Source: Allobaculum fili
Lineage (GTDB): Bacteria; Bacillota_I; Bacilli_A; Erysipelotrichales; Erysipelotrichaceae
NCBI RefSeq assembly: GCF_020969955.1
Contig: NZ_JAHDSX010000060.1
Location: forward strand, 1-11,682
Direction: 5' to 3'
Length of the DNA: 11,682 bases
Each line of letters starts with the position of its first letter. Positions within the stretch are counted from its first letter, which is position 1. Below are positions 1 to 11,682 of this stretch, one piece after another. The position numbers were made by a program, and so were the translations under genes. A model generated the notes under the pieces. It was not told the origin of the DNA. It saw nothing but the letters and a program-made list of their open reading frames with translations, and did not search any database.

Positions 1-125
1 GTGTTCGTAAATCGATGTATTTGAAAACTGTCATCTGAGTATGCACTTTCTAGTCCTCCATTACGGAGTACGATACAAGTCAGGTGGCCCAGTTTTCAAA
101 TCCGATTTTCGCTTTTTTGGACCAG

Positions 126-329
126 TTATAAACTACAAAAAACATGCGATCCGCTGGTATAACCGAGATGCGAATCAAGTTCTCCCTGGAGCATCTGTTC
201 AAGGACAGGGCCAAATATTTCCCTGATGAGGTCTGAGGCTTCTTTAAACGTCTTAGGTTTGTATTCCTTAACGATGGTTGAAGCAATCTGTTCCTGAAGG
301 GTTGGTGCAGCTTTAGCTTTACGTGGCAT
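126..329 (-). pseudogene. IS256-family (Mutator-type) transposase, decayed 5' fragment
   Basis: The ORF starts MPRKAKAAPTLQEQIA...FGPVLEQMLQGELDSHLGY. This is the N-terminal pattern (E-x-E-L/M-x-x-HLGY) I recognise from IS256-family transposases. An AAGGAG SD lies upstream of the ATG at 329. The frame closes after 67 codons and no frame in 1-125 continues into a DDE core, so only a broken N-terminus remains. Confidence 0.6.
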
Positions 330-391
330 AAGTGGTCTCCTTGTATAAATTTGTCAGGCTCAAGCTGATTGTATCAGTCTGATGCCTTGAT

Positions 392-420
392 GGAATTTAC
401 ACAAAAGACCTTACACTCTC
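392..420 (-). mobile_element. Candidate terminal inverted repeat / left end of the IS256-like element
   Basis: The minus strand reads GAGAGTGTAAGGTCTTTTGTGTAAATTCC about 65-90 nt upstream of the transposase ATG. It contains TTGTGTAAA, as in the IS256 IRL as I recall it. The exact boundary was not determined. Confidence 0.35.
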
Positions 421-422
421 AG

Positions 423-453
423 GGCTGGCTCCATGTGAGGGTGGAGTCAGTCC
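423..453. terminator. Imperfect hairpin between the hsdR 3' end and the IS end (possible weak terminator)
   Basis: GGCTGGCTCCA (423-433) pairs with TGGAGTCAGTCC (442-453): 11 bp with one G-T wobble and one bulge. Only TTT follows on the plus strand and there is no U-run on the minus strand, so a terminator function is uncertain. Confidence 0.25.
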
Positions 454-535
454 TTTGGTCGTTATTTCGCAAAATCTATCAGACATTCTTTCCTGCAGAA
501 AGGAAAAATACTAATAATATTTCTAATGCACTGGT

Positions 536-3500
536 TTACAAATATTGAGACAAATTGTTCGCCATTAGTTCTGCTTGAGAAAGAACCAGATCAATCGCAC
601 CAGGAATTTCTTCAGGTGGATAATGGTACTTCCTCAAAAGACGTCTAATATTTTTGCGGATTCCGGCTCTGGCACTTTCTTTGCGTTGCCAGTCAATCGA
701 GACACTATGCCGAAGAATATCCGTGAGCTCTTTTGCAATCTGTACCAGTTGGTCGTTTTCATAAAAGTCTTTTACCGCTTCCGGCTTGCAGAGAGCATCA
801 TAGAAAGCGACTTCTTCAATAGATAAACCCAGATCATTTCCTGCCTGACTGGCATTCCTGATATCTTGGGCCATCCGCATCAATTCCTCAATCACTTCTT
901 CATTCGTTATCAACCCATTCACATAGGAATTTAACGCTTTCTTCAAGCGATCAGAAAACTCTTCTGATTTAACAACATTAGTTCTTTTGAAGCCACGGAT
1001 TTCATCATTCAGTAATCTTTTCAGAAGTTCCAGGGACAGATTTTTTCCCTCCATATTTCTGATTTCCTCTAAGAAGTCAGTATCAAAAAGTGAAAATTCT
1101 TCCCCACGATCTGAGAAAAGGCTTACCACACCCTCACTCTTGATCGTCTGTTTCAGAAGTTCATTAATTTGAGCGTTCACTTCTTTCAAAGACAGCCTGC
1201 CCGAAGCACCGGAAGTCGAAATCCGATTTAAAAGCGTTTTTGCAGCGATAAAATAACCCGCTTCTCTTTGTTGTTTATCATCAACCAAACTGCTGCACAG
1301 AGAGAGAGACTGCTTCAAACGCTGGGCTTCCTTGATAAATTTGAACTGTGCTCTTTCTTTTTCTGGAATATTCATTTCTTGATGGGTTAAATCCATGATG
1401 TGATTCACTCCACCAGTGATTGCTCTTCCTTTTTCCAAATCCGTACCTTGCAAAAAGGACTTATAGTCGTACCCTTTGAATAAGTCTCTACAGCTGAATA
1501 GAGCCTCTTCAAATATAGGAAGTGCCTTTTTCTTAATATCTGGGTCACCAAAATTCTTCTGGTCGCTCTTGGTATAGTCCTTCATTGCTTGCTTTAATGC
1601 GGAGGCAATACCAATATAATCGACTACAAGTCCGCCCTCTTTATCCCCGAAGACACGATTCACTCTGGCAATCGCCTGCATCAGGTTATGGCCGCTCATT
1701 GGTTTAAAAACATACATAGTAGCCAAGGATGGAACATCAAAACCCGTGAGCCACATATCACGAACAATCGCGATTTTGAAATCAGACTCATTATCTTTGA
1801 ACTCTTTTGCCAAATCCGCTCGATACTTATCCGTACCCGTATATTCGTGCCACTCTTCTGGATCTTTATTACTTCCAGTCATTACAATCTTGACCTTTTT
1901 ATCCCAGGTAGGTTCAAGCTCCAGCATCTTATGGTAAAGCTTCACAGCAATTTCTCTGGAGTAAGCAACGATCAGCGCTTTCCCAGTCAATAAATTTTCA
2001 CGATTTTCTTTGTAGTGATCAATAATATCTCTTGCTAGAGAGTCAATCGTTTCATCACTGCCAAGAATAGCCTCCATATTGCTAAGTTCTTTTTTGCTTT
2101 TATCAATTGTGATCTCATCTGCCTCAGCAGCCAACATATCGTACGTGTTGTCGATTCTTCGAAGAGTCTCTTCATCGAGTTTAAGCTTCATAACCCGGCT
2201 TTCATAGTAAACCGGTCTGGTCGCACCATCTTCAACAGCTTGAGTCATGTCGTAAATATCAATATAGTCTCCGAACACAGCTCTCGTGTCTTTATCTTCA
2301 GAATCAATTGGCGTTCCAGTGAAGCCGATATAGGTCGCATTTGGAAGACTATCGCGAACTTTTTTGGCTGCCCCAATCACCGTTTTTGCAAGAACATTCC
2401 CGTATTGATCCTTGGTCGTTACAAATTTTTCAGTAAGACCGTATTGACTACGATGGGCCTCATCCGCCATAACAATAATATTTTTCCGTTTAGATAGAGC
2501 TCCCCATTCTTCTTCGAATTTGGCCATAGTGGTAAAGATGATACCGCCACTTTGTCTATTATTTAAAAGCTCATATAGATTTTCTCTAGAGGTGGCCTGA
2601 ACAGGCGTTTGACGCAGGAACTTATGACAATCCGAGAAGGTCTTAAATAGCTGATCGTCAAGATCACGGCGATCAGTAAGGACAACAAAAGTTGGATCAT
2701 CCATTTGCTGGTCTAATAAATGAGTATAGAAAACCATAGACAGCGACTTACCGCTGCCTTGAGTATGCCAAAATACTCCCCCTCGTCCGTCTGTTTTTGA
2801 AGCCAGCATCGTGGAATGAACGGCTTTCTCAACGGCAAAATACTGATGATATCCAGCCAGAGTCTTGATTAGCCGACCACCAGGCGTCATGAATAAAATG
2901 AAGTTTTTCAGAATATTCAGGAAACGATCCTTCTGGAAAATGCCCGTAAAAAAGGTTTCAAAGTTTGCAAACTTCGTGTTTTCATAATTTCCATCTGTCG
3001 TTTTCCAGTCCATATAACGGTCTTCATTGCTCGAGATTGTACCAGCTCGTGAAACCAACATATCGGACATCACGCAAATTTGATTATAGTTAAATAAGCA
3101 GGGGATATCCAGCATATAATTGCGCAGCTGAACATATCCCTCAGAAGCACCTGTTTCATCCCGTGATGGCGATTTGAGCTCGATCACAACTAATGGCATT
3201 CCGTTTACAAACAGGACAAGATCTGGCCTTTTCTTTTTAAATTCTTCTACAGTGAACTGATTCACGATGAGAAAAGAGTTGTTCTGTACATCGTTATAAT
3301 CGATCAAATGAACCAGATCATTTTTCATTTCACCATTTCGATAGTAGGAGACTCTCAGCCCATTCTGCAGATAGTCTGTAAATTGTTCATTCCTGGTTTC
3401 AAGAGAACCGACCTCCAAATTCCGAATTTTGACTACTGCTTCGTCAAAGGCAGCAGCTGGAAGGTCAGGATTACACATTCGTAGTGAATCTCTTAATACC

Positions 3501-3625
3501 TCGAGAAGAAGGGGATCCCTATAATCCCGATCCATATCTGGACCATATTGATATTCATAGCCTAATTCTGACTCGAACAACTGTATCAGAGTCTTTTCAT
3601 AGGAATCTTCAGTGTATTGATTCAT
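536..3625 (-). CDS. hsdR: Type I restriction enzyme, R (restriction/translocase) subunit
   Basis: 1029-aa ORF with an AAAGGAGGG SD upstream of the ATG. It has an N-terminal PD-(D/E)xK-like nuclease motif (RPDLVLFVNGMPLVVIELK). SF2 helicase motifs are present: motif I HTQGSGKSLSM, DEAH box IIVMADEAHRSQ and motif III GFTGTP. Length and the C-terminal helical domain are typical of HsdR. Confidence 0.95.
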   Translation of the reverse strand: MNQYTEDSYEKTLIQLFESELGYEYQYGPDMDRDYRDPLLLEVLRDSLRMCNPDLPAAAFDEAVVKIRNLEVGSLETRNEQFTDYLQNGLRVSYYRNGEMKNDLVHLIDYNDVQNNSFLIVNQFTVEEFKKKRPDLVLFVNGMPLVVIELKSPSRDETGASEGYVQLRNYMLDIPCLFNYNQICVMSDMLVSRAGTISSNEDRYMDWKTTDGNYENTKFANFETFFTGIFQKDRFLNILKNFILFMTPGGRLIKTLAGYHQYFAVEKAVHSTMLASKTDGRGGVFWHTQGSGKSLSMVFYTHLLDQQMDDPTFVVLTDRRDLDDQLFKTFSDCHKFLRQTPVQATSRENLYELLNNRQSGGIIFTTMAKFEEEWGALSKRKNIIVMADEAHRSQYGLTEKFVTTKDQYGNVLAKTVIGAAKKVRDSLPNATYIGFTGTPIDSEDKDTRAVFGDYIDIYDMTQAVEDGATRPVYYESRVMKLKLDEETLRRIDNTYDMLAAEADEITIDKSKKELSNMEAILGSDETIDSLARDIIDHYKENRENLLTGKALIVAYSREIAVKLYHKMLELEPTWDKKVKIVMTGSNKDPEEWHEYTGTDKYRADLAKEFKDNESDFKIAIVRDMWLTGFDVPSLATMYVFKPMSGHNLMQAIARVNRVFGDKEGGLVVDYIGIASALKQAMKDYTKSDQKNFGDPDIKKKALPIFEEALFSCRDLFKGYDYKSFLQGTDLEKGRAITGGVNHIMDLTHQEMNIPEKERAQFKFIKEAQRLKQSLSLCSSLVDDKQQREAGYFIAAKTLLNRISTSGASGRLSLKEVNAQINELLKQTIKSEGVVSLFSDRGEEFSLFDTDFLEEIRNMEGKNLSLELLKRLLNDEIRGFKRTNVVKSEEFSDRLKKALNSYVNGLITNEEVIEELMRMAQDIRNASQAGNDLGLSIEEVAFYDALCKPEAVKDFYENDQLVQIAKELTDILRHSVSIDWQRKESARAGIRKNIRRLLRKYHYPPEEIPGAIDLVLSQAELMANNLSQYL

Positions 3626-3658
3626 GGAATCCCTCCTTTTCTAGGATTTAGCTGGTGA

Positions 3659-3671
3659 AAACAAGAATTTA
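3659..3671 (+). repeat. Core repeat copy D (AAACAAGAATTTA), intergenic between hsdS and hsdR
   Basis: A 13/14 match to the core found inside the hsdS central regions. It is in plus orientation, 5 nt beyond the hsdS stop, and is non-coding, so codon conservation cannot explain it. It is an inverted partner of copy A. Confidence 0.8.
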
Positions 3672-3676
3672 TTGGC

Positions 3677-4834
3677 TTAGAGCTCAATATTAGATATGTC
3701 AAGTTCACCGGAGAATAGTTTTGGAAGCAAGATATCTCTTAAGTTGGCAAGCTTTAAATTTTCCGCCTGATTTGCCCAAATGGTTTCAAAAAGAGGAGAA
3801 ACAACATCTGTAAATGAGTTCATTTCTTCTGCTGTTGGCACGACTATTTCTGTTTTCTGAAAATCAGGAACTGTAAGCTGTTGTTGCGTAGTCCCAGTTC
3901 CGAGAATTTTGGAGTTCCTTAACCACAGATAAAGATATTTCGCAGATACTATTTCTTTTTTCGGGACTAAGGTGATAAGCCGGACTATCGGGGTATATGG
4001 TCGATGGCGCAAGCAAACATAACCAATAGTTCCTCTCGCGGAGACCGTAATGCTTTCATCCTCAATTTTGTACCCACTTGAAAATCCATAAAGGCCTTCG
4101 TCTCTAATGCCATTAGAATAAATTGGATATGGATATTCTGTGGTTTGAACGGCAGATACAGTTTTTGGTTTATCTCCCCCAGCTCCTATTAGGGATACAT
4201 CCGCGAGAGTGGTCTTTTTCCATCCATCTCGTGATGGTCCTGGTGTGAGGAATCGACTTCTGAAAATTTCCTGTATTTGCTGTTCTAAATTCTTGTTTAT
4301 CTGATTATTGAGATCGATTTTCGCTTGCATTCGCTCAATCAAATTTATCTGCTTTTTCTGAAATTCCAAGGAAGGTAAATCAATTTCAATGTTTTTAAAG
4401 TTCTTCAATGGTTGTGCCAAAGCTGGAACACCAGTCTGGTTTTTAAATGCCAAAATTTTCGATTGCCCTTCTCTGGTGTGGAAATAATAAACAAGGTATG
4501 GAACGTATACTTGATCTTCATCAAAAGAGACGCGGAATTGTCTCTGCGAGACTAAGTATTCATTGTATTTAGAGTCTTTCGGGATATAGGCTATCTGCCC
4601 AACAGTTCCGCTAATAGTAACAACAACATCACCTTTTTTGGCGATAGATCGGCTTAATGATCGCGCCTTCTCTTCCGAAACAAATTTCGTTATATTGTCA
4701 GTCACCTTAACTCCCTTGAGATTAGCTCCATCTACGATGGGGAAACCGGATGAAGTGAAGCATTCAACTTTTAAATTCGAACCAAAAGGTCCTGCCGCGA
4801 TATCTTTAATTACCTCGTCTAATTTAATTATCAT
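3677..4834 (-). CDS. hsdS: Type I R-M specificity subunit, full length (TRD1-alpha, central helix, TRD2-alpha)
   Basis: Two TRDs are separated by the central conserved helix (...QKKQINLIERMQAKIDLNNQINKNLEQQIQEIF...). The C-terminal conserved region is RDILLPKLFSGELD. The best start is the ATG at 4834 (MIIKLDEVIKDIAAGPFG), with SD AGGAGGTG 8 nt upstream. That ATG overlaps the recombinase stop as ATGA. The GTG at 4843 given in the ORF track lies inside the SD. Confidence 0.9.
   Translation of the reverse strand: MIIKLDEVIKDIAAGPFGSNLKVECFTSSGFPIVDGANLKGVKVTDNITKFVSEEKARSLSRSIAKKGDVVVTISGTVGQIAYIPKDSKYNEYLVSQRQFRVSFDEDQVYVPYLVYYFHTREGQSKILAFKNQTGVPALAQPLKNFKNIEIDLPSLEFQKKQINLIERMQAKIDLNNQINKNLEQQIQEIFRSRFLTPGPSRDGWKKTTLADVSLIGAGGDKPKTVSAVQTTEYPYPIYSNGIRDEGLYGFSSGYKIEDESITVSARGTIGYVCLRHRPYTPIVRLITLVPKKEIVSAKYLYLWLRNSKILGTGTTQQQLTVPDFQKTEIVVPTAEEMNSFTDVVSPLFETIWANQAENLKLANLRDILLPKLFSGELDISNIEL
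4285..4300 (-). repeat. Core repeat copy A (minus strand ATAAACAAGAATTTAG) inside hsdS-alpha
   Basis: Identical over 16 bp to copy C (6459-6474, same orientation). It is the inverted complement of copy B over 15 bp and of copy D over 13 bp. It encodes I-N-K-N-L at the TRD1/TRD2 junction. Confidence 0.9.
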
Positions 4835-5817
4835 CCAATACACCTCCTATGTGAGCTTTTTACATTACTTTGTTTCACCATCGCATATTGCATGGTTGTA
4901 TCAATCCGTTCATGTCCAAGCAATTTTTGCAATTGCTCAACCGGCATACCTTTATCAATGGCTGTTGTAGCCATAGTCCTTCGAAACTTATGGGGATGGA
5001 CTTTGGTGATTCCGGCACCTTCGCCGATAGTCTTTAGTCGTGACTCTACCCCATTTATCGTCAATCTGGCATATGGCTGCTTTAATCCTACGAACAGCGC
5101 TTCTCCTCCATCTACCCGTTCAGACAAATACTTGGAAAGATGGAGCTTAGTGCGCGCATCAAAGTAGACTGGACGTTCTTTATTACCTTTACCAAATACA
5201 ATGCATTCCCTCTCGGTTAAATCAACGTCATCAATGTTAAGTTTGACAAGCTCACCAACACGCATACCTGTGGAGGCAAGCAAATCAATCATTGCCAAAT
5301 CTCTGCTGTTAGACGTTGAATCTCTCATTTTTTCGAGTTCTTCATCAGAGTAAGTGTCTTTGATCACCTTATCTGTTTTAATTTTGTGAATCCTTCTTGC
5401 TGGACTCTTTAGGATATGGTCCTCTTCTTCGAGCCAAGAAAAAAAGCTTGAGATAATTCTTCGGATATTATCGATAGTTACTTTGCTTGATCCATGTAGC
5501 TTCTGATAATCAGATAAATAAGATCGGAGATCATCAGTCATGATTCCAATAACAGGCTTACTAATCTGATCGAGCATCTTTTGAATAGTTTTTCTATAAT
5601 AATCAATCGACTTCTCAGAGCAGCCTTCGACCTGTTTGGCCGATAAAAACAAATCCAAATACTCTTCATTTTGCTTAGAAGGGTCTTCCTGATGATTTTG
5701 AGAAACATCGAACTGCGAAACTACAGCTCGAATAACAGTCTCAATCGTTTTCAACTCTCCGTAACCAAACAAACCACTCAACGCCTGGACAACACTGTTC
5801 ACTAAGATTTCCTGCAT
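4831..5817 (-). CDS. Tyrosine site-specific recombinase (phage integrase / XerC-XerD-like)
   Basis: The R-K-H-R-H-Y catalytic set is recognisable: STGMRVGEL, GKGNKER, HPHKFRRT, LGHERIDTT and TMQYA. The probable start is the ATG at 5817 (MQEILVNS...), with SD GAGGTG 6 nt upstream. The longer ORF reaching 5871 has no SD. Confidence 0.9.
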   Translation of the reverse strand: MQEILVNSVVQALSGLFGYGELKTIETVIRAVVSQFDVSQNHQEDPSKQNEEYLDLFLSAKQVEGCSEKSIDYYRKTIQKMLDQISKPVIGIMTDDLRSYLSDYQKLHGSSKVTIDNIRRIISSFFSWLEEEDHILKSPARRIHKIKTDKVIKDTYSDEELEKMRDSTSNSRDLAMIDLLASTGMRVGELVKLNIDDVDLTERECIVFGKGNKERPVYFDARTKLHLSKYLSERVDGGEALFVGLKQPYARLTINGVESRLKTIGEGAGITKVHPHKFRRTMATTAIDKGMPVEQLQKLLGHERIDTTMQYAMVKQSNVKSSHRRCIG

Positions 5818-5836
5818 AATCTTCACCTCGCCTACA

Positions 5837-6454
5837 GTGAGTATGCAAATATCAGTAGGTGGAGCAAACAAGAATTTAGAGCAGCAGGCGCAGGCTATTT
5901 ACGAAGAACTCTTCATTAAAAAAGCCAACCCGCAGTGGGAAACAGGACTTCTTTCAGATTTGGTAGAGGTTAAATACGGAAAAGATCATAAAAAGCTGGC
6001 TGATGGTGGCTATCCCGTATATGGTTCTGGTGGAATTATGCGTTATGTTGAGCGACCACTCTATTCTGGGGAGTCAGTTTTGATACCTCGTAAGGGTACA
6101 CTCAACAATGTAATGTATGTCAATGGGGCGTTTTGGTCTGTAGATACGATGTTTTACACTAAGATGCAACGCCCTAATGTGGCAAAGTTTGTTTTCCATT
6201 TTATAAAGAGTAAGGATCTTGCTTCGCTGAATGCTGGTTCTGCTGTTCCGAGTATGACAACAAACATTTTGAATGCAATGCAGCTCCGTATCCCATATGA
6301 AAAGACACTCCGAGAGTTTGAAGAACTTGTTTTACCTATGTATAAAGCCATGCAGGAAAACGAAACGCAATCCTCAAGACTGGCCTCAATAAGGGATGCT
6401 CTACTCCCTCGCCTTATGTCCGGCGAGCTGGATGTCTCGGGCATCGACCTCTAA
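5837..6454 (+). CDS. hsdS: Silent hsdS half-gene cassette (central-helix remnant, TRD2-beta, C-terminal conserved region), inverted relative to the operon
   Basis: The translation from the core onward is NKNLEQQAQAIYEELF...TRD...IRDALLPRLMSGELDVSGIDL. This parallels the second half of the 385-aa HsdS. It has no TRD1 and no SD. The nominal GTG start lies in the antisense of the recombinase 5' UTR. Confidence 0.8.
   Translation: MSMQISVGGANKNLEQQAQAIYEELFIKKANPQWETGLLSDLVEVKYGKDHKKLADGGYPVYGSGGIMRYVERPLYSGESVLIPRKGTLNNVMYVNGAFWSVDTMFYTKMQRPNVAKFVFHFIKSKDLASLNAGSAVPSMTTNILNAMQLRIPYEKTLREFEELVLPMYKAMQENETQSSRLASIRDALLPRLMSGELDVSGIDL
5866..5880 (+). repeat. Core repeat copy B (AAACAAGAATTTAGA), 49 bp upstream of the recombinase start codon
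   Basis: A plus-orientation copy at the 5' edge of the silent TRD2-beta cassette. Its codon phase is the same as in copies A and C (AAC AAG AAT TTA G). Confidence 0.9.
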
Positions 6455-6945
6455 GCCGCTAAATTCTTGTTTATGAGAGCATTGTTATCCATTTTCTCAT
6501 CTAGAGAATTCAAGATGCCGGCTATTCTTTTTTGAAGCTGAAGAGGCGGAAGATCAATTTCCTGGTTTTCCATATCTTGCTTTGTTATATGAGCCATCAC
6601 ACTTCCATGTCCGCCAGCTTGCATTCTTCGAACATTGTTTAGAAGCCAGTAATACAAATAGTATTTATCTGCTTTACTGTCATCTACCTGCAGTTTCCAA
6701 ATATGATAGTGATAAATAGATTTTGGTCCGCGATAAATTTTTGGTCCGAATGATGCTGACCAAGCAAACAACAAATCGTCATCCTCACAGTATTTATCTG
6801 ATTCAAGTTCTAAATCTGAATAGAGCATTTCTGAATTGGTAAAAAAATTACCCACTCGAAGAACTTGATATTTTCCTTTCTCTAGTAGTTCGTTTAATTT
6901 ATAGGCACGGCCATTAATCACCCGACAGACATCTTTAAATTTCAT
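6451..6945 (-). CDS. hsdS: Type I R-M specificity subunit, one-TRD (half) form: TRD1-gamma plus central helix only
   Basis: 164 aa counted from the ATG at 6945 (MKFKDVCRVINGRAY...). This start overlaps the hsdM stop by 11 nt. An alternative ATG at 6978 cannot be excluded. The protein ends ...DLPPLQLQKRIAGILNSLDEKMDNNALINKNLAA*, which is exactly at the core repeat where a second TRD would normally follow. Confidence 0.85.
   Translation of the reverse strand: MKFKDVCRVINGRAYKLNELLEKGKYQVLRVGNFFTNSEMLYSDLELESDKYCEDDDLLFAWSASFGPKIYRGPKSIYHYHIWKLQVDDSKADKYYLYYWLLNNVRRMQAGGHGSVMAHITKQDMENQEIDLPPLQLQKRIAGILNSLDEKMDNNALINKNLAA
6459..6474 (-). repeat. Core repeat copy C (minus strand ATAAACAAGAATTTAG) at the 3' end of the hsdM-linked hsdS
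   Basis: A 16-bp direct repeat of copy A and an inverted repeat of copy B. The ORF stops two codons after the core (..NKNL AA TAG). Confidence 0.9.
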
Positions 6946-8452
6946 ACCCAATATTCTCCAGTTGCTTCCTGATTTCATCTTCGAGTTCACGTGATTGTTT
7001 AAACAAATCACCAAGTTCAGAAGTCAGGCGTTTCATTTTTTCGTCGAATGGCTCTCCATCTTCTTTGTCTTCTTCAATTCCTACGTATCTGCCTGGAGTT
7101 AGAATATAGTCCTGTTTTGCGATTTCTTCGGTATCGACTATTGCCCAGTGCCCTGGATTATTCTCAAGGTTACCTTCTTCGTAGGATTGATAAAGTTCAC
7201 CTATCTTTTTAACATCTTCATCGGAAAATTCGCGCAGTTTCCTGGAAACCATGGTTCCCATATCTTTAGCGTCAATAAAAAGCGTCTTTCCTTTTTGCTT
7301 TTTATTCATTGAAAGAAACCAGAGTGAAACAGGGATACCCGTTGAATAGAAGAGCTTTTCAGGCAAAGCTACTATGCAATCAACCAAGTCTGCTTCAATG
7401 ATTTTTTTACGGATTTCGCCCTCACCCTTTGTCTGAGTAGAAAGCGCACCATTTGCCAGGACCATACCGATCTTTCCGTTTCGGTTCAGGTGAGAAATCA
7501 TATGCTCCATCCAGGCAAAGTTTGCGTTTGATTCAGGAGGTGTTCCATAAGCCCATCTCGGGTCATCTTCGAGCGATTTGTGCCACCAGCTTTTATCGTT
7601 GAAAGGAGGATTCGCCATCACAAAATCCATCTTTTCATGAGGGTGAAGATCTTCCAAAAAGGTGTCTGCGTTGTGGGGGCCGAGGTTTGCATCAATTCCT
7701 CTGATCGCCAGGTTCATCTGAGCAAGCTTCCAGGTAGTCGGATTAGATTCCTGCCCAAACACGGAAATATCATTCAGGTGACCTCCATGATTCTCAATGA
7801 ATTTTGCAGACTGCACAAACATTCCGCCGCTACCGCAGCAAGGATCGTAAACACGGCCATGGTAAGGTTTTAAAACCTCAACAAGCGTGCGCACTACAGA
7901 AGAAGGCGTATAGAATTCGCCTGCGTTTTTGCCTTCCTGGGAAGCAAATTTCTGGAGACAATATTCATAGGTTCTTCCGAGAATATCTTTTTCGTTTCCG
8001 TGTTCGTGCATTTTGATATTGGTGAACAAATCGACAACTTCACCTAATCTTCGCTGGTCCATTTCAGGGCGGGCATAGTTTTTTGGTAGAACGCCTTTCA
8101 GTTTTGGGTTCTCTTTCTCGATTTGTTCCATCGCAGAGTCGATGGCTGTTCCAACAGAGTTTGTATGCGCGGAGTTCTTAATCACATCCCATCGAGCACC
8201 TTCCGGAACGAAAAATATGTTTTCAGAAATATACTCATCTTTATCGTCAGGATCAGCATATGGGTCTTTTAAAAGTTCAGCACGTTTTGCTTCGAAAGAA
8301 TCAGAGATATACTTCAAAAAGATTAAGCCGAGAATAACGTGTTTATATTCAGAAGCATCCATGCTACCGCGGAGAACATCGGCTGCACTCCACAGTTCAG
8401 CTTCAAATCCCACATCTGCTTTATTAGATACTCTCTTCTTTGTATTTGCCAT
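6935..8452 (-). CDS. hsdM: Type I R-M N6-adenine DNA methyltransferase subunit
   Basis: 505 aa with SD AGAAGGAG. The HsdM N-terminal motif is LWSAADVLRGSMDASEYKHVILGLIFLKYIS. Motif X is GEFYTP, motif I is VYDPCCGSGGMF and motif IV is MANPPFN. Confidence 0.95.
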   Translation of the reverse strand: MANTKKRVSNKADVGFEAELWSAADVLRGSMDASEYKHVILGLIFLKYISDSFEAKRAELLKDPYADPDDKDEYISENIFFVPEGARWDVIKNSAHTNSVGTAIDSAMEQIEKENPKLKGVLPKNYARPEMDQRRLGEVVDLFTNIKMHEHGNEKDILGRTYEYCLQKFASQEGKNAGEFYTPSSVVRTLVEVLKPYHGRVYDPCCGSGGMFVQSAKFIENHGGHLNDISVFGQESNPTTWKLAQMNLAIRGIDANLGPHNADTFLEDLHPHEKMDFVMANPPFNDKSWWHKSLEDDPRWAYGTPPESNANFAWMEHMISHLNRNGKIGMVLANGALSTQTKGEGEIRKKIIEADLVDCIVALPEKLFYSTGIPVSLWFLSMNKKQKGKTLFIDAKDMGTMVSRKLREFSDEDVKKIGELYQSYEEGNLENNPGHWAIVDTEEIAKQDYILTPGRYVGIEEDKEDGEPFDEKMKRLTSELGDLFKQSRELEDEIRKQLENIGYEI

Positions 8453-8492
8453 AAGTCTCCTTCTTTTGCCTCATGGGCTATGTATTCTTTCA

Positions 8493-8498
8493 TTATAA
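8493..8498 (-). promoter_or_regulatory. Candidate -10 box (TATAAT) for the hsdM operon
   Basis: The minus strand reads ...TTGCAATCCAGGGGTGATTATAATGAAAG, with TATAAT 41 nt upstream of the hsdM ATG. No properly spaced -35 was found (TTGCAA is only 12 nt away). Confidence 0.35.
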
Positions 8499-8528
8499 TC
8501 ACCCCTGGATTGCAAAGGGCTTTCATCG

Positions 8529-8590
8529 AAAAAAAATCAGGCTATCAGTGGCTTCTTACACCGAAAGATCAGCCGCTATTTAAGCCTGAT
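8529..8590 (-). terminator. Intrinsic terminator T2 (minus strand)
   Basis: ATCAGGCT (8583-8590 on the plus strand as AGCCTGAT) pairs with 8536-8543. An inner 7-bp helix pairs 8547-8553 with 8571-8577. On the minus strand the hairpin is followed directly by a T-run (plus-strand A-run at 8529-8536). Confidence 0.6.
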
Positions 8591-8674
8591 ATAAAGATTG
8601 GTTTTCCTGTCCCCTCAATATTGGAAATGGACCAATTTGTTTAGCGATACCATCCTGATAAATCTTTTTTTCGC

Positions 8675-8719
8675 AAAAAGGGGCATAAACCAAATGGTCC
8701 ATTCCATCTTTTATGCCCC
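8675..8719 (-). terminator. Intrinsic terminator T1 (minus strand)
   Basis: A 10-bp stem pairs GGGGCATAAA (8680-8689) with TTTATGCCCC (8710-8719). Extra ATGG/CCAT pairing occurs in the 20-nt loop. On the minus strand TTTTT follows (plus-strand A-run at 8675-8679). No T-run follows on the plus strand. Confidence 0.65.
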
Positions 8720-8725
8720 GACTCC

Positions 8726-8799
8726 CGGCGGATTACCCCGTTCTCTTGGCACGGAAAAGCGGGCGTGTTACGCCCGAATAGCATGGTCGACTTACGCCG
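8726..8799 (-). other. GC-rich structured segment (possible three-way junction RNA) directly 5' of terminator T1
   Basis: The closing helix pairs CGGCG (8795-8799) with CGCCG (8726-8730). It encloses hairpin CGGGCG-TAACA-CGCCCG (8760-8776) and hairpin CCGT-N9-ACGG (8738-8754). The surrounding sequence is AT-rich. I could not assign a known RNA family. Confidence 0.25.
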
Positions 8800-8872
8800 A
8801 TAGATAAATCTAAATATATTAAAAATTACTATATGAAGCTTTAAACTCAAACCTTGGGATTCTGATCTCAGA

Positions 8873-9055
8873 TTTCGGAATTCAGAACCCTAAAATACGA
8901 AATCTCAGTCTGATTTATTGGAATATACATCTAAGGCCTTCTGCAATCGCCCAAATCGAACGATGCAGTTCATTGCGTTCCCGCAGCCTGTTTTCTGTCA
9001 CAATAATTCCTTCTGGCTTTGAAGCTGCACGAGTTTCGTATTTCTTTGCGTTCAT
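8873..9055 (-). pseudogene. Relic of an hsdM-type methyltransferase N-terminus with in-frame stop codons
   Basis: From the ATG at 9055 the frame reads MNAKKYETRAASKPEGIIVTENRLRERNELHRSIWAIAEGLRCIFQ*IRLRFRILGF*IPK. The window's own HsdM reads ...ELWSAADVLRGSMDASEYKHVILGLIFLK. The two share W-x-x-A-x-x-LR, then 11 residues, then ILG-x-x-x-x-K with identical spacing. The relic carries TAA and TGA stops and the homology is lost soon after. Confidence 0.4.
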
Positions 9056-9095
9056 TCGTTACTGGTTCAATACACCATGAGCGCCATTCTTTTGC

Positions 9096-9647
9096 TCAAA
9101 TTTCGTAAAGGTGTCTGAATTTGATTGTTCGTTTCAGAGCCTTGTGAAGACTGTCTTTAGTAATCTTAAGCTCATTATTCACAACAGCTTTAACTAAATT
9201 TGGATATTCTTTTGGGTTCGCCTCAATCATTGAAATAGGACTTGAAGAACCATCTACGCCTTTTCCTTTATGATGAATCGGTCCAATAATGATATCCGAA
9301 TACTCATAATTAAGTTTTAGTTTGCCGTAATTAAATCTCTTGATTTCTTCATTAGTCACGAATTCAATCTGTCTGGGGTCAATTCCAACTTGAGAGGCAA
9401 TTTGATCAATTGCTTTTTTATCGAGGTGCGTAAATCCAATGATCATGACCTTGGCTGTATATCGATTGAAGATCCAGTCGTTTTGGGTTGTTTCTGTATC
9501 CTCATAAAAGCCAATCTTTTTTAGATAAGACTCAAGCCCTCCTGTTCGATTCTCCAGGAGAAGACGATCAGATACGTAGGAACAGACTTCATATGCCAGA
9601 TTGTCAAGGCCCTGTTTATCTAACGCCAAGAGACTCACCACCCTCAT
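9096..9647 (-). CDS. Hypothetical protein, downstream partner of the M-S fusion-like gene
   Basis: The open frame runs 9096-9671. Candidate starts are TTG 9671, ATG 9647 and TTG 9629; the last has a GAGGGTG SD-like run upstream. All of them overlap the end of the upstream gene (stop at 9616). The C-terminal half (KVMIIGF...YSDIIIGPIHHKGKG...LKITKDSLHKAL) has an alternating strand/helix pattern that reminds me of small Rossmann-like domains such as DUF2325. This is unverified. Confidence 0.6.
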   Translation of the reverse strand: MRVVSLLALDKQGLDNLAYEVCSYVSDRLLLENRTGGLESYLKKIGFYEDTETTQNDWIFNRYTAKVMIIGFTHLDKKAIDQIASQVGIDPRQIEFVTNEEIKRFNYGKLKLNYEYSDIIIGPIHHKGKGVDGSSSPISMIEANPKEYPNLVKAVVNNELKITKDSLHKALKRTIKFRHLYEI

Positions 9648-11274
9648 CAAAAAGAGAATCTCGTTTTGCAATAATTCTCTCTACCCGCTGTCTAGCTTCT
9701 TTCAGCCGGTCTTGAAGGATCTTATATCTGGCTCCCATGACTTTCTGCTGCTCCAGATCAAGTTTGGGAATTTCCATATTTTTAAGATCCGGGGTTGTAA
9801 TATTTTTTATAACAGAGCCTTTACTGATGGATTCCAATCTGTTTTTACCGTCGCTCGAAGTGAGGTAAGCCATCAAATACCGAGGATCAATTTTTTGAAG
9901 ATCGGGGCGGATAACAAGAAAGTTGCTGCTAGGAATCACATGCATTTCTCCAATACCTTCCATAAAAGCAATCTGTGGTGCGACCCCTTTGGAAAAGATC
10001 AGAATATCACCATCCATTAAATAAATATCATTTTGAGCTGAAGAATCTTCGCCGATTGTCTCCAATGCGGAGATATCAATCTGCTGATCACGCAGTGCCT
10101 TGGCTGTAAGAAGATAACAATCGCCTTCAGCATTCTCATTCATCTTAGCCAGATTTTTTCCTCTGAATACTTCAGCAACATCCTTAACACAGTATGTATT
10201 CTCAAAGTCTCTCAGACTAGTCTGAGTGTAGTAGCGCTGCGGATATAAAAGGGAGCTGTCAGCTTCTGCCTCTGCAACACTTAAATCGTTAAAGAGGGTC
10301 TCGTGATTACGAATCGTTGACTCTAATCCTTCCAGAAGCTCCTTCTGTTTCTGCAAACTCTTTTTTCGGCCAAGAGAAAAGATACTATTAAGATCACAGA
10401 TTTGAATCTTCGAATTCTCTTTTTTACTCAGAATAAGAAGCACAGGAGAAATAGAAGTATTAGGGAGGATTCCAGCAGGAAGCTGAATGACTTTTTCAAT
10501 AACGCTGCTCTTGATCAATGCATTGACGAACTTCTTTTCGGAGTTAGAGAAGAGGACAGAAGGCGTAGTGACCAAAGCGGCAATTCCATCTTTATCCAAT
10601 GAAATAAGAGCATCATTAACCAACTCAGCCTCGTACGACCGAACGTTGATTTCTTCACCATTAAAAGCGAGGATTGGTGTGCGCTCTACTCGTCTCATTC
10701 CAAATGGAAGTTCTCCAAGAACAAGATCAAATCGGCCTTTTTCTGTTTTATGATTCAAGCGATCGATTCTCACTTCGATGGGCAGGTTAAACACCCTGCT
10801 AACAATTTGCTGAAGCATGCAATGTCTGGGGTTCAGGTCTTCTGAAACAATTCTGGCAGTCGGGAAATCCTGCGCCGCTTTTGCAGTAATATTTCCACGA
10901 CACGAATTCATATTGAGGATTCGCAGCGGTTTTACATCCCCCTCAAAAAGTCGAATCAGATCAGGAAGAATCTTCAGACCGTTTCCGGGTTCCGTAGAAT
11001 CAGTAATCGAAAGAGCATTAATAATGGTACTCTTGATCCCTTCATAATCCAGATCCCGTAAAGCCTCTGTCCATAAAGAGACAGCCTCCTGATTAGCCCC
11101 GTCTACATTGATGTCGCTAATGTCTTTGTTTAATACATGGGCTGCTGCTACAGCCAGATTTAAAATTTCTTCACTTGATTTGACAGCGCTCAGCTCTTTC
11201 ATTGGAGATTCAACTTTTAAAATCTCCAGATCACTAGCAATTCTTTCTTTTGATGTCTTTACTTCTGTTGGCAA
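9616..11274 (-). CDS. HsdM-like methyltransferase-fold domain fused to a single HsdS-type TRD; catalytic and SAM motifs are non-canonical
   Basis: 552 aa with a TTG start and SD AGGAGG 7 nt upstream. Residues 97-290 align by eye with the window's HsdM: GLKILPDLIRLFEGDVKPLRILNMNSCRGN against GEFYTPSSVVRTLVEVLKPYHGRVYDPCCGSGG. SEDLNPRHCMLQQ aligns with QESNPTTWKLAQM, FDLVLGELPFG with DFVMANPPFN, and VIQLPAGILPNTSISPVLLILSKK is the usual post-motif-VIII strand. Residues 362-540 look like one HsdS TRD plus a conserved helix (VKDVAEVFRGKN...NFLVIRP...YLMAYLTS...IPKLDLEQQKVMGARYKILQDRL). Confidence 0.85.
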   Translation of the reverse strand: MPTEVKTSKERIASDLEILKVESPMKELSAVKSSEEILNLAVAAAHVLNKDISDINVDGANQEAVSLWTEALRDLDYEGIKSTIINALSITDSTEPGNGLKILPDLIRLFEGDVKPLRILNMNSCRGNITAKAAQDFPTARIVSEDLNPRHCMLQQIVSRVFNLPIEVRIDRLNHKTEKGRFDLVLGELPFGMRRVERTPILAFNGEEINVRSYEAELVNDALISLDKDGIAALVTTPSVLFSNSEKKFVNALIKSSVIEKVIQLPAGILPNTSISPVLLILSKKENSKIQICDLNSIFSLGRKKSLQKQKELLEGLESTIRNHETLFNDLSVAEAEADSSLLYPQRYYTQTSLRDFENTYCVKDVAEVFRGKNLAKMNENAEGDCYLLTAKALRDQQIDISALETIGEDSSAQNDIYLMDGDILIFSKGVAPQIAFMEGIGEMHVIPSSNFLVIRPDLQKIDPRYLMAYLTSSDGKNRLESISKGSVIKNITTPDLKNMEIPKLDLEQQKVMGARYKILQDRLKEARQRVERIIAKRDSLFDEGGESLGVR

Positions 11275-11287
11275 ATTCGTACCTCCT

Positions 11288-11303
11288 AAGTTTATTTAAA
11301 CTT
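11288..11303. promoter_or_regulatory. Operator-like near-palindrome AAGTTTATTTAAACTT abutting the SD of the 552-aa gene
   Basis: A 16-bp dyad with one central asymmetry, immediately adjacent to the SD complement CCTCCT (11282-11287). It repeats the 11348-11363 site with one mismatch. Confidence 0.45.
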
Positions 11304-11347
11304 TTTTCCTTGAGCTTATTCTGGCATTAATCCGACCAAAATTCAAG

Positions 11348-11363
11348 AAGTTTATATAAACTT
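11348..11363. promoter_or_regulatory. Operator-like perfect palindrome AAGTTTATATAAACTT
   Basis: A perfect 16-bp palindrome, 60 bp centre-to-centre from the proximal copy. The shared unit AAGTTTATNTAAACTTTTT is 19 nt. On the minus strand it overlaps a possible -10 (TTTATA), with TTGCCA 18 nt upstream. Confidence 0.45.
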
Positions 11364-11578
11364 TTTCATGATTATTTATGGCAATCCAATTATCATGAGG
11401 AATTATTGCCTTTTAACCCTGTGAGACGGAGGAAAACCGAAAAGAAGACATTAGAACGCAAGAAAAAACTGTACAGAATTGTTCTGATCCAGGTTCTGTA
11501 TATGTAAATTCTACTGACTTATTTTTGTCAATTGAAAACTGGTCCAGTCGTAAACTAGAACTTTCCCAATCAGCTAAA

Positions 11579-11680
11579 CTATACGGTCGGATTTTTGCGT
11601 GGACGACCACGTTTCCTTTTGGGCTGGTCTACTGGATCTGGTCGTGGAATCAGATCCAGTTTTTGAAGAATTTCTATCTG
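11579..11680 (-). CDS. 3' end of an unidentified gene entering from the right edge (partial)
   Basis: A minus-strand frame open to the window edge reads ...QIEILQKLDLIPRPDPVDQPKRKRGRPRKNPTV*. It has a basic, AT-hook-like GRPRK tail. A plus-strand frame over the same bases is also open, so the call is tentative. Confidence 0.3.
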   Translation of the reverse strand, partial: QIEILQKLDLIPRPDPVDQPKRKRGRPRKNPTV

Positions 11681-11682
11681 AC

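Follow-up and report, generated by a model that had tools for sequence, protein, structure and literature searches.

A predicted specificity switch built on four shared recombination sites in an Allobaculum fili locus for Type I restriction–modification

Introduction

Recombinase-driven shuffling of hsdS, the specificity gene of Type I restriction–modification (R-M) systems, is established in the ivr and tvr loci of Streptococcus pneumoniae, in Mycoplasma pulmonis, Bacteroides fragilis and Streptococcus suis, and in large surveys of gut bacteria. A related locus lies on a stretch of 11,682 nt from Allobaculum fili (NCBI RefSeq assembly GCF_020969955.1, contig NZ_JAHDSX010000060.1, positions 1 to 11,682), hereafter the window, in which a Type I R-M system carries the gene of a Xer-like tyrosine recombinase between several pieces of hsdS. 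Our analysis indicates that this locus very probably consists of invertible cassettes, each encoding a second target recognition domain (TRD2), which are switched by the locus-encoded recombinase at four shared sites.

Two pneumococcal loci are among the closest known systems. In the ivr locus (SpnD39III, cod), one hsdS gene is expressed beside silent partial copies, and inversions by the recombinase (PsrA/CreX) give six HsdS variants. Three repeat pairs (85, 333 and 15 bp) are used; the 15-bp repeat needs the recombinase, and every inversion gives a full-length HsdS. In the tvr locus (SpnIV, recombinase TvrR), the midpoint and tail-end repeats share a core of approximately 11 bp, all repeats are direct, and shuffling proceeds via excised circles (Kwun et al. 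2018, PMC6265443). At a wider scale, the consulted parts of Huang et al. (2020, Nucleic Acids Res 48:11468, PMC7672463) list 139 REBASE and 458 NCBI loci with a 'clade-2' (TvrR-type) invertase, describe clade-2 epigenetic invertons as yielding truncated HsdS in an 'ON/OFF' manner, and credit clade 2 with the broadest phyletic spread, Euryarchaeota among its hosts. Atack et al. (2020) report that their survey selected strictly by the length of the repeats, so that sites of 13 bp may have been missed. A specificity subunit with only the first target recognition domain (TRD1), a half-HsdS of engineered or natural origin (Bower et al. 2018, PMC6158711; NgoAV), can dimerise and direct the methylation of a palindromic target.

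In this study, the sites, genes and natural arrangements of the A. fili locus were investigated by sequence comparison. An earlier reading of the window (the original prediction) had proposed four copies of one short core, two flip cassettes and six HsdS forms, and its claims are considered where the respective results are given.

Materials and methods

Counts of the core cover the window at full length. The recombinase protein of the window is encoded identically on at least 23 public metagenome contigs, ten of which (L001 to L010) were compared with the window; arrangements were compared between samples, with each isomer taken from a different one. Relatives in other species were scanned with one genome per species, and 80 loci from other species were fetched. 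The completeness of the hsdS genes was evaluable in 36 of the 37 loci with four sites (among L016 to L095).

Results

Four copies of one core site in alternating orientation

On the minus strand, the genes run in the order hsdM, a TRD1-only hsdS (gamma1), the inverted TRD2 cassette beta2, the recombinase gene, an hsdS composed of the TRD1 part alpha1 and the TRD2 cassette alpha2, and hsdR (Table 1). The exact 13-mer AAACAAGAATTTA occurs in four copies, named D, A, B and C, against a mean of 0.01 expected from dinucleotide-preserving shuffles, and none of 200 shuffles held four exact copies. The four positions given in the original prediction were borne out by the exact 13-mer scan in all particulars that were checked, and its range of 13–16 bp for the core was also right: the 14th base (G) is common to A, B and C, and 16 nt (ATAAACAAGAATTTAG) are common to A and C. 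The orientations alternate, D(+), A(−), B(+) and C(−), so that D/A, A/B, B/C and D/C are inverted pairs and A/C and D/B are direct pairs. Alpha2 is flanked by D and A and beta2 by B and C, in both cases as exact inverted repeats of 13–14 nt.

The codon phase AAC AAG AAT TTA (N-K-N-L) is shared by A relative to alpha1, B relative to beta2 and C relative to gamma1, as had been claimed. Core D falls inside the 51 nt that separate the stop of hsdS (3677) from the start of hsdR (3625) and is therefore non-coding, which confirms the intergenic position assigned to it. Both cassettes finish with CTCTAAGCC, followed by 2 nt and the inverted core TAAATTCTTGTTT, so that the common end layout described by the original prediction is indeed present.

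Two further features of the cassette and site borders were observed. In the cassettes delta2 (L001 and L002), epsilon2 (L009) and zeta2 (L007), the TRD2 frame enters the inverted core directly and the TAA of the core is the stop codon (…IEIQ-TAAATTCTTGTTT), in contrast to alpha2 and beta2 of the window with their CTCTAAGCC element and 2-nt spacer. The non-coding anchors at 3649–3671 (upstream of hsdR) and 5856–5878 (upstream of the recombinase gene) are alike in 20 of 23 nt, including TAG-TGG-G to the left of the core; this likeness is not kept in the loci of other species, where the flanks are unrelated.

Natural isomers with breakpoints in the core

Rearrangements of the predicted kind were found in public assemblies of A. 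fili itself. Contig L002 (ERR13955999) matches the window at 99.8–100%, but beta2 is inverted. The cassette is 100% identical over 607 nt and is flipped and fused to gamma1, thereby encoding a gamma1-beta2 protein of 353 aa that is present as an exact entry in the protein collection. Three alignments between L002 and the window overlap solely in the 14-nt core on each side. The flip between B and C that had been foreseen is thus found in nature. A second isomer involves the other cassette. The exact look-up of the predicted protein gamma1...NKNL-LA, the product expected where gamma1 abuts the alpha2 tail, was positive, and the protein is encoded on L014 and L015. On both contigs, the alpha2 cassette is 100% identical over 640 nt from core to core and lies flipped in the hsdM-proximal slot; the identity in L014 starts exactly at core D. 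Where tested (L002 and L014), the breakpoints lie inside the core and not outside it. These natural isomers support the claim that the cores are the crossover sites, with the recombinase as the presumed catalyst.

Across L001 to L010, alpha1 is joined to alpha2, delta2 or epsilon2, or is truncated (189 aa). Delta2 stands in sense behind alpha1 in L001 and L003 (400-aa HsdS) and is flipped in L002, where alpha1 is cut to 189 aa. Epsilon2 stands in sense behind alpha1 in L007, L008 and L010, is flipped in L005 and L009, and occupies the hsdM-proximal slot in L004. A TRD1-only alpha1 beside a flipped cassette, the alpha1-alone form of the original prediction, was seen in L002, L005 and L009. Both cassettes are flipped in place between L001 and L002, with no swap. 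Both hsdS genes are truncated in L009, an A. fili contig, which indicates that single flips do happen. Alternative arrangements were therefore found in L002, L014/L015 and L009 relative to the window, and in L011 relative to L012 of another species (described below), all of them between samples. Because the cores (13–16 nt) are shorter than any assembler k-mer, reads must have crossed the junctions, which cannot be an artefact of repeat assembly. The strains of A. fili also carry differing sets of cassettes among alpha2, beta2, delta2, epsilon2, zeta2 and eta2.

Exact protein look-ups of alpha1-AA, gamma1-delta2 and gamma1-epsilon2 gave no match, and both orientations within one sample were looked for with no case found. 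Exact look-ups of HsdM and HsdR of the window were likewise empty, because of a few single-nucleotide polymorphisms. When gamma1 and alpha1 were used as queries, most of the homologues returned were TRD1-only, and the full-length fusions that the loci are known to encode were not among them; fusion forms could therefore not be counted in this way.

A second recombinase allele, with approximately 70% nucleotide and 71% protein identity and a different TRD1, was observed in the A. fili-like contigs L005 (2431–3420) and L014 (5811–6800). It stands in place of the recombinase-alpha1 segment of the window in L014, and in tandem after the recombinase-alpha1 segment in L005, within an array of at least six sites.

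The same four-site design in other species

At least 289 relatives of the recombinase were found at 56–66% identity (best aligned segment), in Bacillota, Negativicutes, Bacteroidota, Spirochaetes, Proteobacteria, Thermoguttaceae and Methanobrevibacter. Four cores in the order +,−,+,− around the recombinase gene were present in 37 of the 80 fetched loci, and the recombinase gene of these four-site loci is always enclosed by the sites. The pair of flip cassettes had been regarded as unusual by the original prediction; this view does not hold, given the same layout in 37 of 80 related loci and the truncated HsdS already noted by Huang et al. (2020).

In 37/37 four-site loci with enough flank, the four copies of a locus show no difference over 13 positions (A AAY NAK AAT TTA). 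Variation between loci is confined to three central positions of the core, at which the four copies of a locus never disagree, the two non-coding ones included. Around the variable centre, I, N and L are encoded by ATA, AAT and TTA in essentially all loci, despite the existence of synonymous alternatives.

In Acidaminococcus massiliensis, a recombinase of 60% identity is surrounded by four copies of the identical 13-mer, whose order and orientation are those of the window. Its contigs L011 (isolate) and L012 (metagenome) are 99.9% identical, with the whole segment between the outer sites inverted. The 46-nt BLAST overlap at the ends of this inversion was rejected as an extension artefact, and the true shared sequence is approximately 15 nt. 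Contigs from isolates of Caproiciproducens galactitolivorans (L026), Bariatricus massiliensis (L038) and Faecalibacillus intestinalis (L018) start or end 0–2 nt from a core, which suggests mixed arrangements in clonal cultures, because assemblers stop where reads support two continuations.

Contig ends at 0–3 nt from a core were also observed in L055, L056, L009 and L005. Relatives of the recombinase in L059, L074 and L088 are accompanied by three or more cores, all in direct orientation. Such all-direct loci (also L050 and L057), with cores such as AAATCAAAATTTG, have a tvr-like layout that would give excision rather than inversion. In L077 (7481–7506), from an uncultured Lachnospiraceae bacterium, two cores lie 13 nt apart where the recombinase-proximal TRD1 ends, and the locus has five sites.

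One complete hsdS gene in most four-site loci

Exactly one complete and one TRD1-only hsdS gene were found in 34 of the 36 evaluable four-site loci. The hsdM-proximal gene was complete in 17 of these and the recombinase-proximal gene in 14, and the recombinase segment was inverted in the other 3. No locus had two complete genes (0/36), and two truncated genes were seen in one degenerate locus only (L032). The truncated gene almost always ends two codons past the N-x-N-L of the core, at GYGGCTTAR, a conserved tail element and the antisense of the cassette stop codon. An inverted recombinase segment makes this exclusivity automatic, since the two anchors then face one and the same cassette.

Genes of the locus

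The coordinates of the sites, cassettes and genes are given in Table 1. The window encodes a complete Type I system, with Pfam matches for hsdR, hsdM and hsdS and with three Methylase_S open reading frames (ORFs). Alpha1-alpha2 is a full HsdS of 385 aa (4834–3677), and this protein and gamma1 are exact matches to A. fili WP_230268380.1 and WP_230268383.1, respectively. The C-terminus of gamma1 reads I-N-K-N-L-A-A-stop. Beta2 is in sense on the plus strand, convergent with gamma1, and is therefore currently silent.

Table 1 Core sites, cassettes and genes of the Type I R-M locus in the window
Feature	Position	Strand	Description	Support or remark
Core D	3659..3671	+	Non-coding; tail of alpha2 cassette, in the gap between hsdS stop and hsdR start	Exact 13-mer
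Core A	4286..4298	-	Coding, N-K-N-L, central conserved helix of alpha1-alpha2	Exact 13-mer
Core B	5866..5878	+	Upstream of recombinase gene, head of beta2 cassette	Exact 13-mer; breakpoint of the L002 flip
Core C	6460..6472	-	Coding, gamma1 end (…INKNL-AA-stop)	Exact 13-mer; breakpoint of the L002 flip and L014 junction
hsdM	6935..8452	-	Methyltransferase subunit of 505 aa, first in the locus	Pfam HsdM_N and N6_Mtase
gamma1	6451..6945	-	TRD1-only hsdS, 164 aa, WP_230268383.1; start overlaps hsdM end	
beta2	5879..6459	+	TRD2 cassette; stop codon 6452-6454	Pfam Methylase_S
Recombinase	4831..5817	-	Xer-like tyrosine recombinase, 328 aa from ATG, AGGTGA ribosome-binding site	
alpha1	4299..4834	-	TRD1 anchor; start overlaps recombinase stop	
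alpha2	3672..4285	-	TRD2 cassette, fused to alpha1 at present; stop codon 3677-3679	ORF, Pfam Methylase_S
hsdR	536..3625	-	1029 aa, restriction/translocase subunit, last gene	Pfam HSDR_N, SWI2_SNF2, ResIII, T1R_D3-like and T1RH-like_C

The recombinase gene lies between the two cassettes, as the ORFs and Pfam matches confirm for this part of the original prediction. Its product belongs to the site-specific recombinases according to matches with Pfam Phage_integrase and Phage_int_SAM_4, and it reaches 245 bits against NCBIfam NF040815 (cut-off 220). The best solved relatives are XerA/XerD, and the alignment to XerA 4a8e covers the motif region. The motifs STGMRVGEL, GKGNKER, HPHKFRRT, LLGH and QYAMV are invariant in an alignment of four homologues; by motif reading rather than structure mapping, we take these to be the catalytic R-K-H-R-H-Y signature of tyrosine recombinases. 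In a scan for promoters and terminators, promoter-like sites were fewer than in shuffles, and nothing usable was obtained on the transcription of the recombinase gene or alpha1.

Other elements of the window were also noted. Upstream of hsdM, a 552-aa protein with N6_Mtase and Methylase_S (TRD) domains is encoded at 9616–11274 (−), followed by an overlapping ORF at 9096–9671 (−) with no family match (191 aa from the longest start, 177 aa in related contigs). This pair is kept in L001, L014 and L015 and may represent a second, single-polypeptide methyltransferase/specificity module. The 54 nt at positions 91–144 recur at L015:1–54, at the far contig end and in the opposite relative orientation, with 98% identity, and may mark the border of a repeated or mobile element where the contig ends.

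Discussion

Proposed mechanism and its products

We propose that the locus contains two fixed TRD1 anchors, namely gamma1 behind hsdM and alpha1 behind the recombinase gene, and two TRD2 cassettes, alpha2 and beta2, that would be mobile. Each cassette is bounded by inverted copies of the site, one in the N-K-N-L helix codons and the other just past the cassette stop, and the Xer-like recombinase would exchange strands inside the core. The pattern of variation among loci suggests a tyrosine-recombinase site in which recognition by the protein would fall to the inverted arms ATAAA / TTTA[G], and in which the 6-bp overlap region (CAAGAA) would need matching between partner sites only. When the core is read in one direction, an anchor always lies to its left (gamma1 end, alpha1 end, recombinase upstream or hsdR upstream) and a cassette end to its right, which is a head (GAGCAGCA..., E-Q-Q) or a tail (GCGGCTTAGAG, antisense of L-stop), so that each crossover would re-pair anchors with cassette ends in frame.

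Four inversions would be available to such a locus: BxC would flip beta2, AxD would flip alpha2, AxB would flip the recombinase-alpha1 segment and DxC would flip everything. These inversions would connect 16 arrangements and yield six HsdS products, with gamma1 or alpha1 joined to alpha2, joined to beta2 or ended two codons past N-K-N-L; the six forms originally predicted are the correct count for the arrangements reachable in this way. The direct pairs A/C and B/D could additionally excise circles. The original prediction obtained gamma1-alpha2 from AxC. As an inversion this route fails, because A and C are direct repeats and their exchange would delete alpha1, the recombinase gene and beta2 as a circle; as a product gamma1-alpha2 stands, and by inversion alone it would arise from DxC followed by a cassette flip. 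With the TRDs mutually 22–35% identical, each combination should recognise a different target. We infer, rather than observe, the switching rate and the resulting change in methylation specificity.

Weighing of the explanations

Several points weigh against the proposed switch. Gamma1-alpha2 and alpha1-beta2, both among the products originally predicted, have no exact match in public protein data, and the same applies to alpha1-LA. The recombinase segment is inverted in no A. fili contig, and the role of the locus recombinase as the catalyst of the rearrangement is one that we infer. The isomers come from different samples and could formally represent strain-to-strain differences instead of switching within a population. 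Finally, free independent flipping should give zero or two complete hsdS genes in half of the loci, whereas two complete genes were seen in none and two truncated genes in one.

The reaction itself might be of another kind. Excision and reintegration, as in tvr/SpnIV, could be the main reaction if the direct pairs A/C and B/D excised a circle carrying the recombinase gene, whose re-entry elsewhere would move the cassettes. The midpoint and tail-end repeats of tvr with their common core of approximately 11 bp follow the same logic, relatives of the recombinase occur in the all-direct loci L059, L074 and L088, and cassettes occur in either slot. Excision between sites 1 and 3 with re-entry at site 4 would also convert an alpha1-complete into a gamma1-complete arrangement without a two-complete or two-truncated state, thereby fitting the regularity of one complete gene. 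We nevertheless consider this explanation unlikely, since the sites alternate in orientation, so that each site and its nearest neighbour form an inverted pair, since both cassettes are flipped in place and not swapped between L001 and L002, and since one simple inversion separates the two A. massiliensis contigs; the deletion form hsdM-gamma1-alpha2-hsdR without the recombinase was not found by exact protein look-up. It is far less probable still that the isomers are strain differences produced by allelic replacement or homologous recombination, with no switching within a lineage and with cores that are N-K-N-L coding sequence left by duplication. Every isomer does come from a different sample, and the strains of A. 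fili do differ in their cassette sets, but in 37/37 loci across phyla the non-coding copies D and B match the coding ones exactly and co-vary with them, the synonymous positions of the arms are essentially invariant, the sites always enclose a recombinase gene, and isolate assemblies break exactly at the cores. The cores as mere conserved coding sequence were rejected on these grounds. Recombination of the RecA type was rejected as the source of the isomers, because the breakpoints of identical cassettes found in either orientation fall in a 14-nt core, too short for such exchange. Inversion of TRD2 cassettes at the four shared sites by the locus-encoded recombinase thus remains the reading that we favour, and it is carried by the site copies, the gene content, the natural isomers with core breakpoints and the co-variation of the four copies; the last two largely uphold the mechanism put forward in the original prediction.

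The regularity of one complete hsdS gene, which we did not meet in the consulted parts of the literature on hsdS shuffling, bears on how this switch operates. One possibility is that the other states are lost through selection, the other that the common reactions keep the two genes in this relation; whole-segment inversion together with mid-segment inversion, or excision with re-entry, could do so. A tentative suggestion, which we rate as possible but not probable, is that the locus family is a mutually exclusive toggle of two hsdS genes rather than a free shufflon, in which every stable state would have exactly one anchor with a TRD2, the other ending two codons past the core at GYGGCTTAR. 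Exclusivity in such a toggle would be brought about by coupled recombination (excision/re-entry or mid-segment inversion) or by selection against zero or two complete HsdS, and the co-produced half-HsdS may, by analogy, be active as a dimer on a palindromic target.

Significance

A recombinase-driven switch of restriction and methylation specificity is predicted for A. fili, a mucin-degrading gut bacterium, and such a switch matters for defence against phages and for barriers to gene transfer, and possibly for gene expression that depends on methylation. A compact, fully assembled example is available in the window of a layout common to at least 37 species of several phyla. The site anatomy (invariant arms and a co-varying 6-bp centre) and the regularity of one complete hsdS gene are directly testable in the four-site family. 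The locus adds a clean example of a widespread and already noted family; the general phenomenon is well documented, and no new principle is involved.

Comparison with known systems

The A. fili locus resembles ivr in the inversion of Type I hsdS segments and in the number of six HsdS variants. It differs from ivr in that a single site sequence is used four times, two TRD1 anchors lie on the coding strand, and flips give TRD1-only products. The truncated forms may not simply be 'off': by analogy with half-HsdS proteins, the gamma1 form of 164 aa and the alpha1 form of approximately 185 aa might act as dimers. Half-HsdS proteins keep the whole central conserved region, whereas the truncated forms here, in our own reading of the sequence, stop approximately two thirds along the helix.

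The likeness to tvr lies in TRD segments bounded by repeats with a short common core (here the 13-mer in the helix codons at A and C and at the cassette edges at D and B), in a locus-encoded tyrosine recombinase between hsdS pieces, and in the fixed TRD1 adjacent to hsdM. Unlike the all-direct repeats of tvr, the sites here alternate (+,−,+,−), which makes inversion the obvious reaction. No TvrA/TvrT toxin–antitoxin ORF stands between the hsd genes here, unlike in tvr; the ORF list of the window contains no ORF between beta2 and the recombinase gene or between the recombinase gene and alpha1, where genes abut or overlap.

The closest counterparts at the level of whole loci are the clade-2 loci of Huang et al. 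(2020), as far as the consulted parts of that account describe them. Like the window, they combine a Type I R-M system with a tyrosine recombinase and with several pieces of hsdS that differ in orientation, and their wide phyletic spread agrees with that of the relatives from Methanobrevibacter, Bacteroidota, Spirochaetes and Negativicutes. The recombinase of A. fili may belong to the TvrR clade (clade 2), with which this spread, including archaea, is consistent. In those consulted parts, the account is a catalogue of loci; the present analysis differs from it in describing a single 13-bp core at four junctions, a logic of two anchors and two cassettes, and the regularity of one complete hsdS gene per locus.

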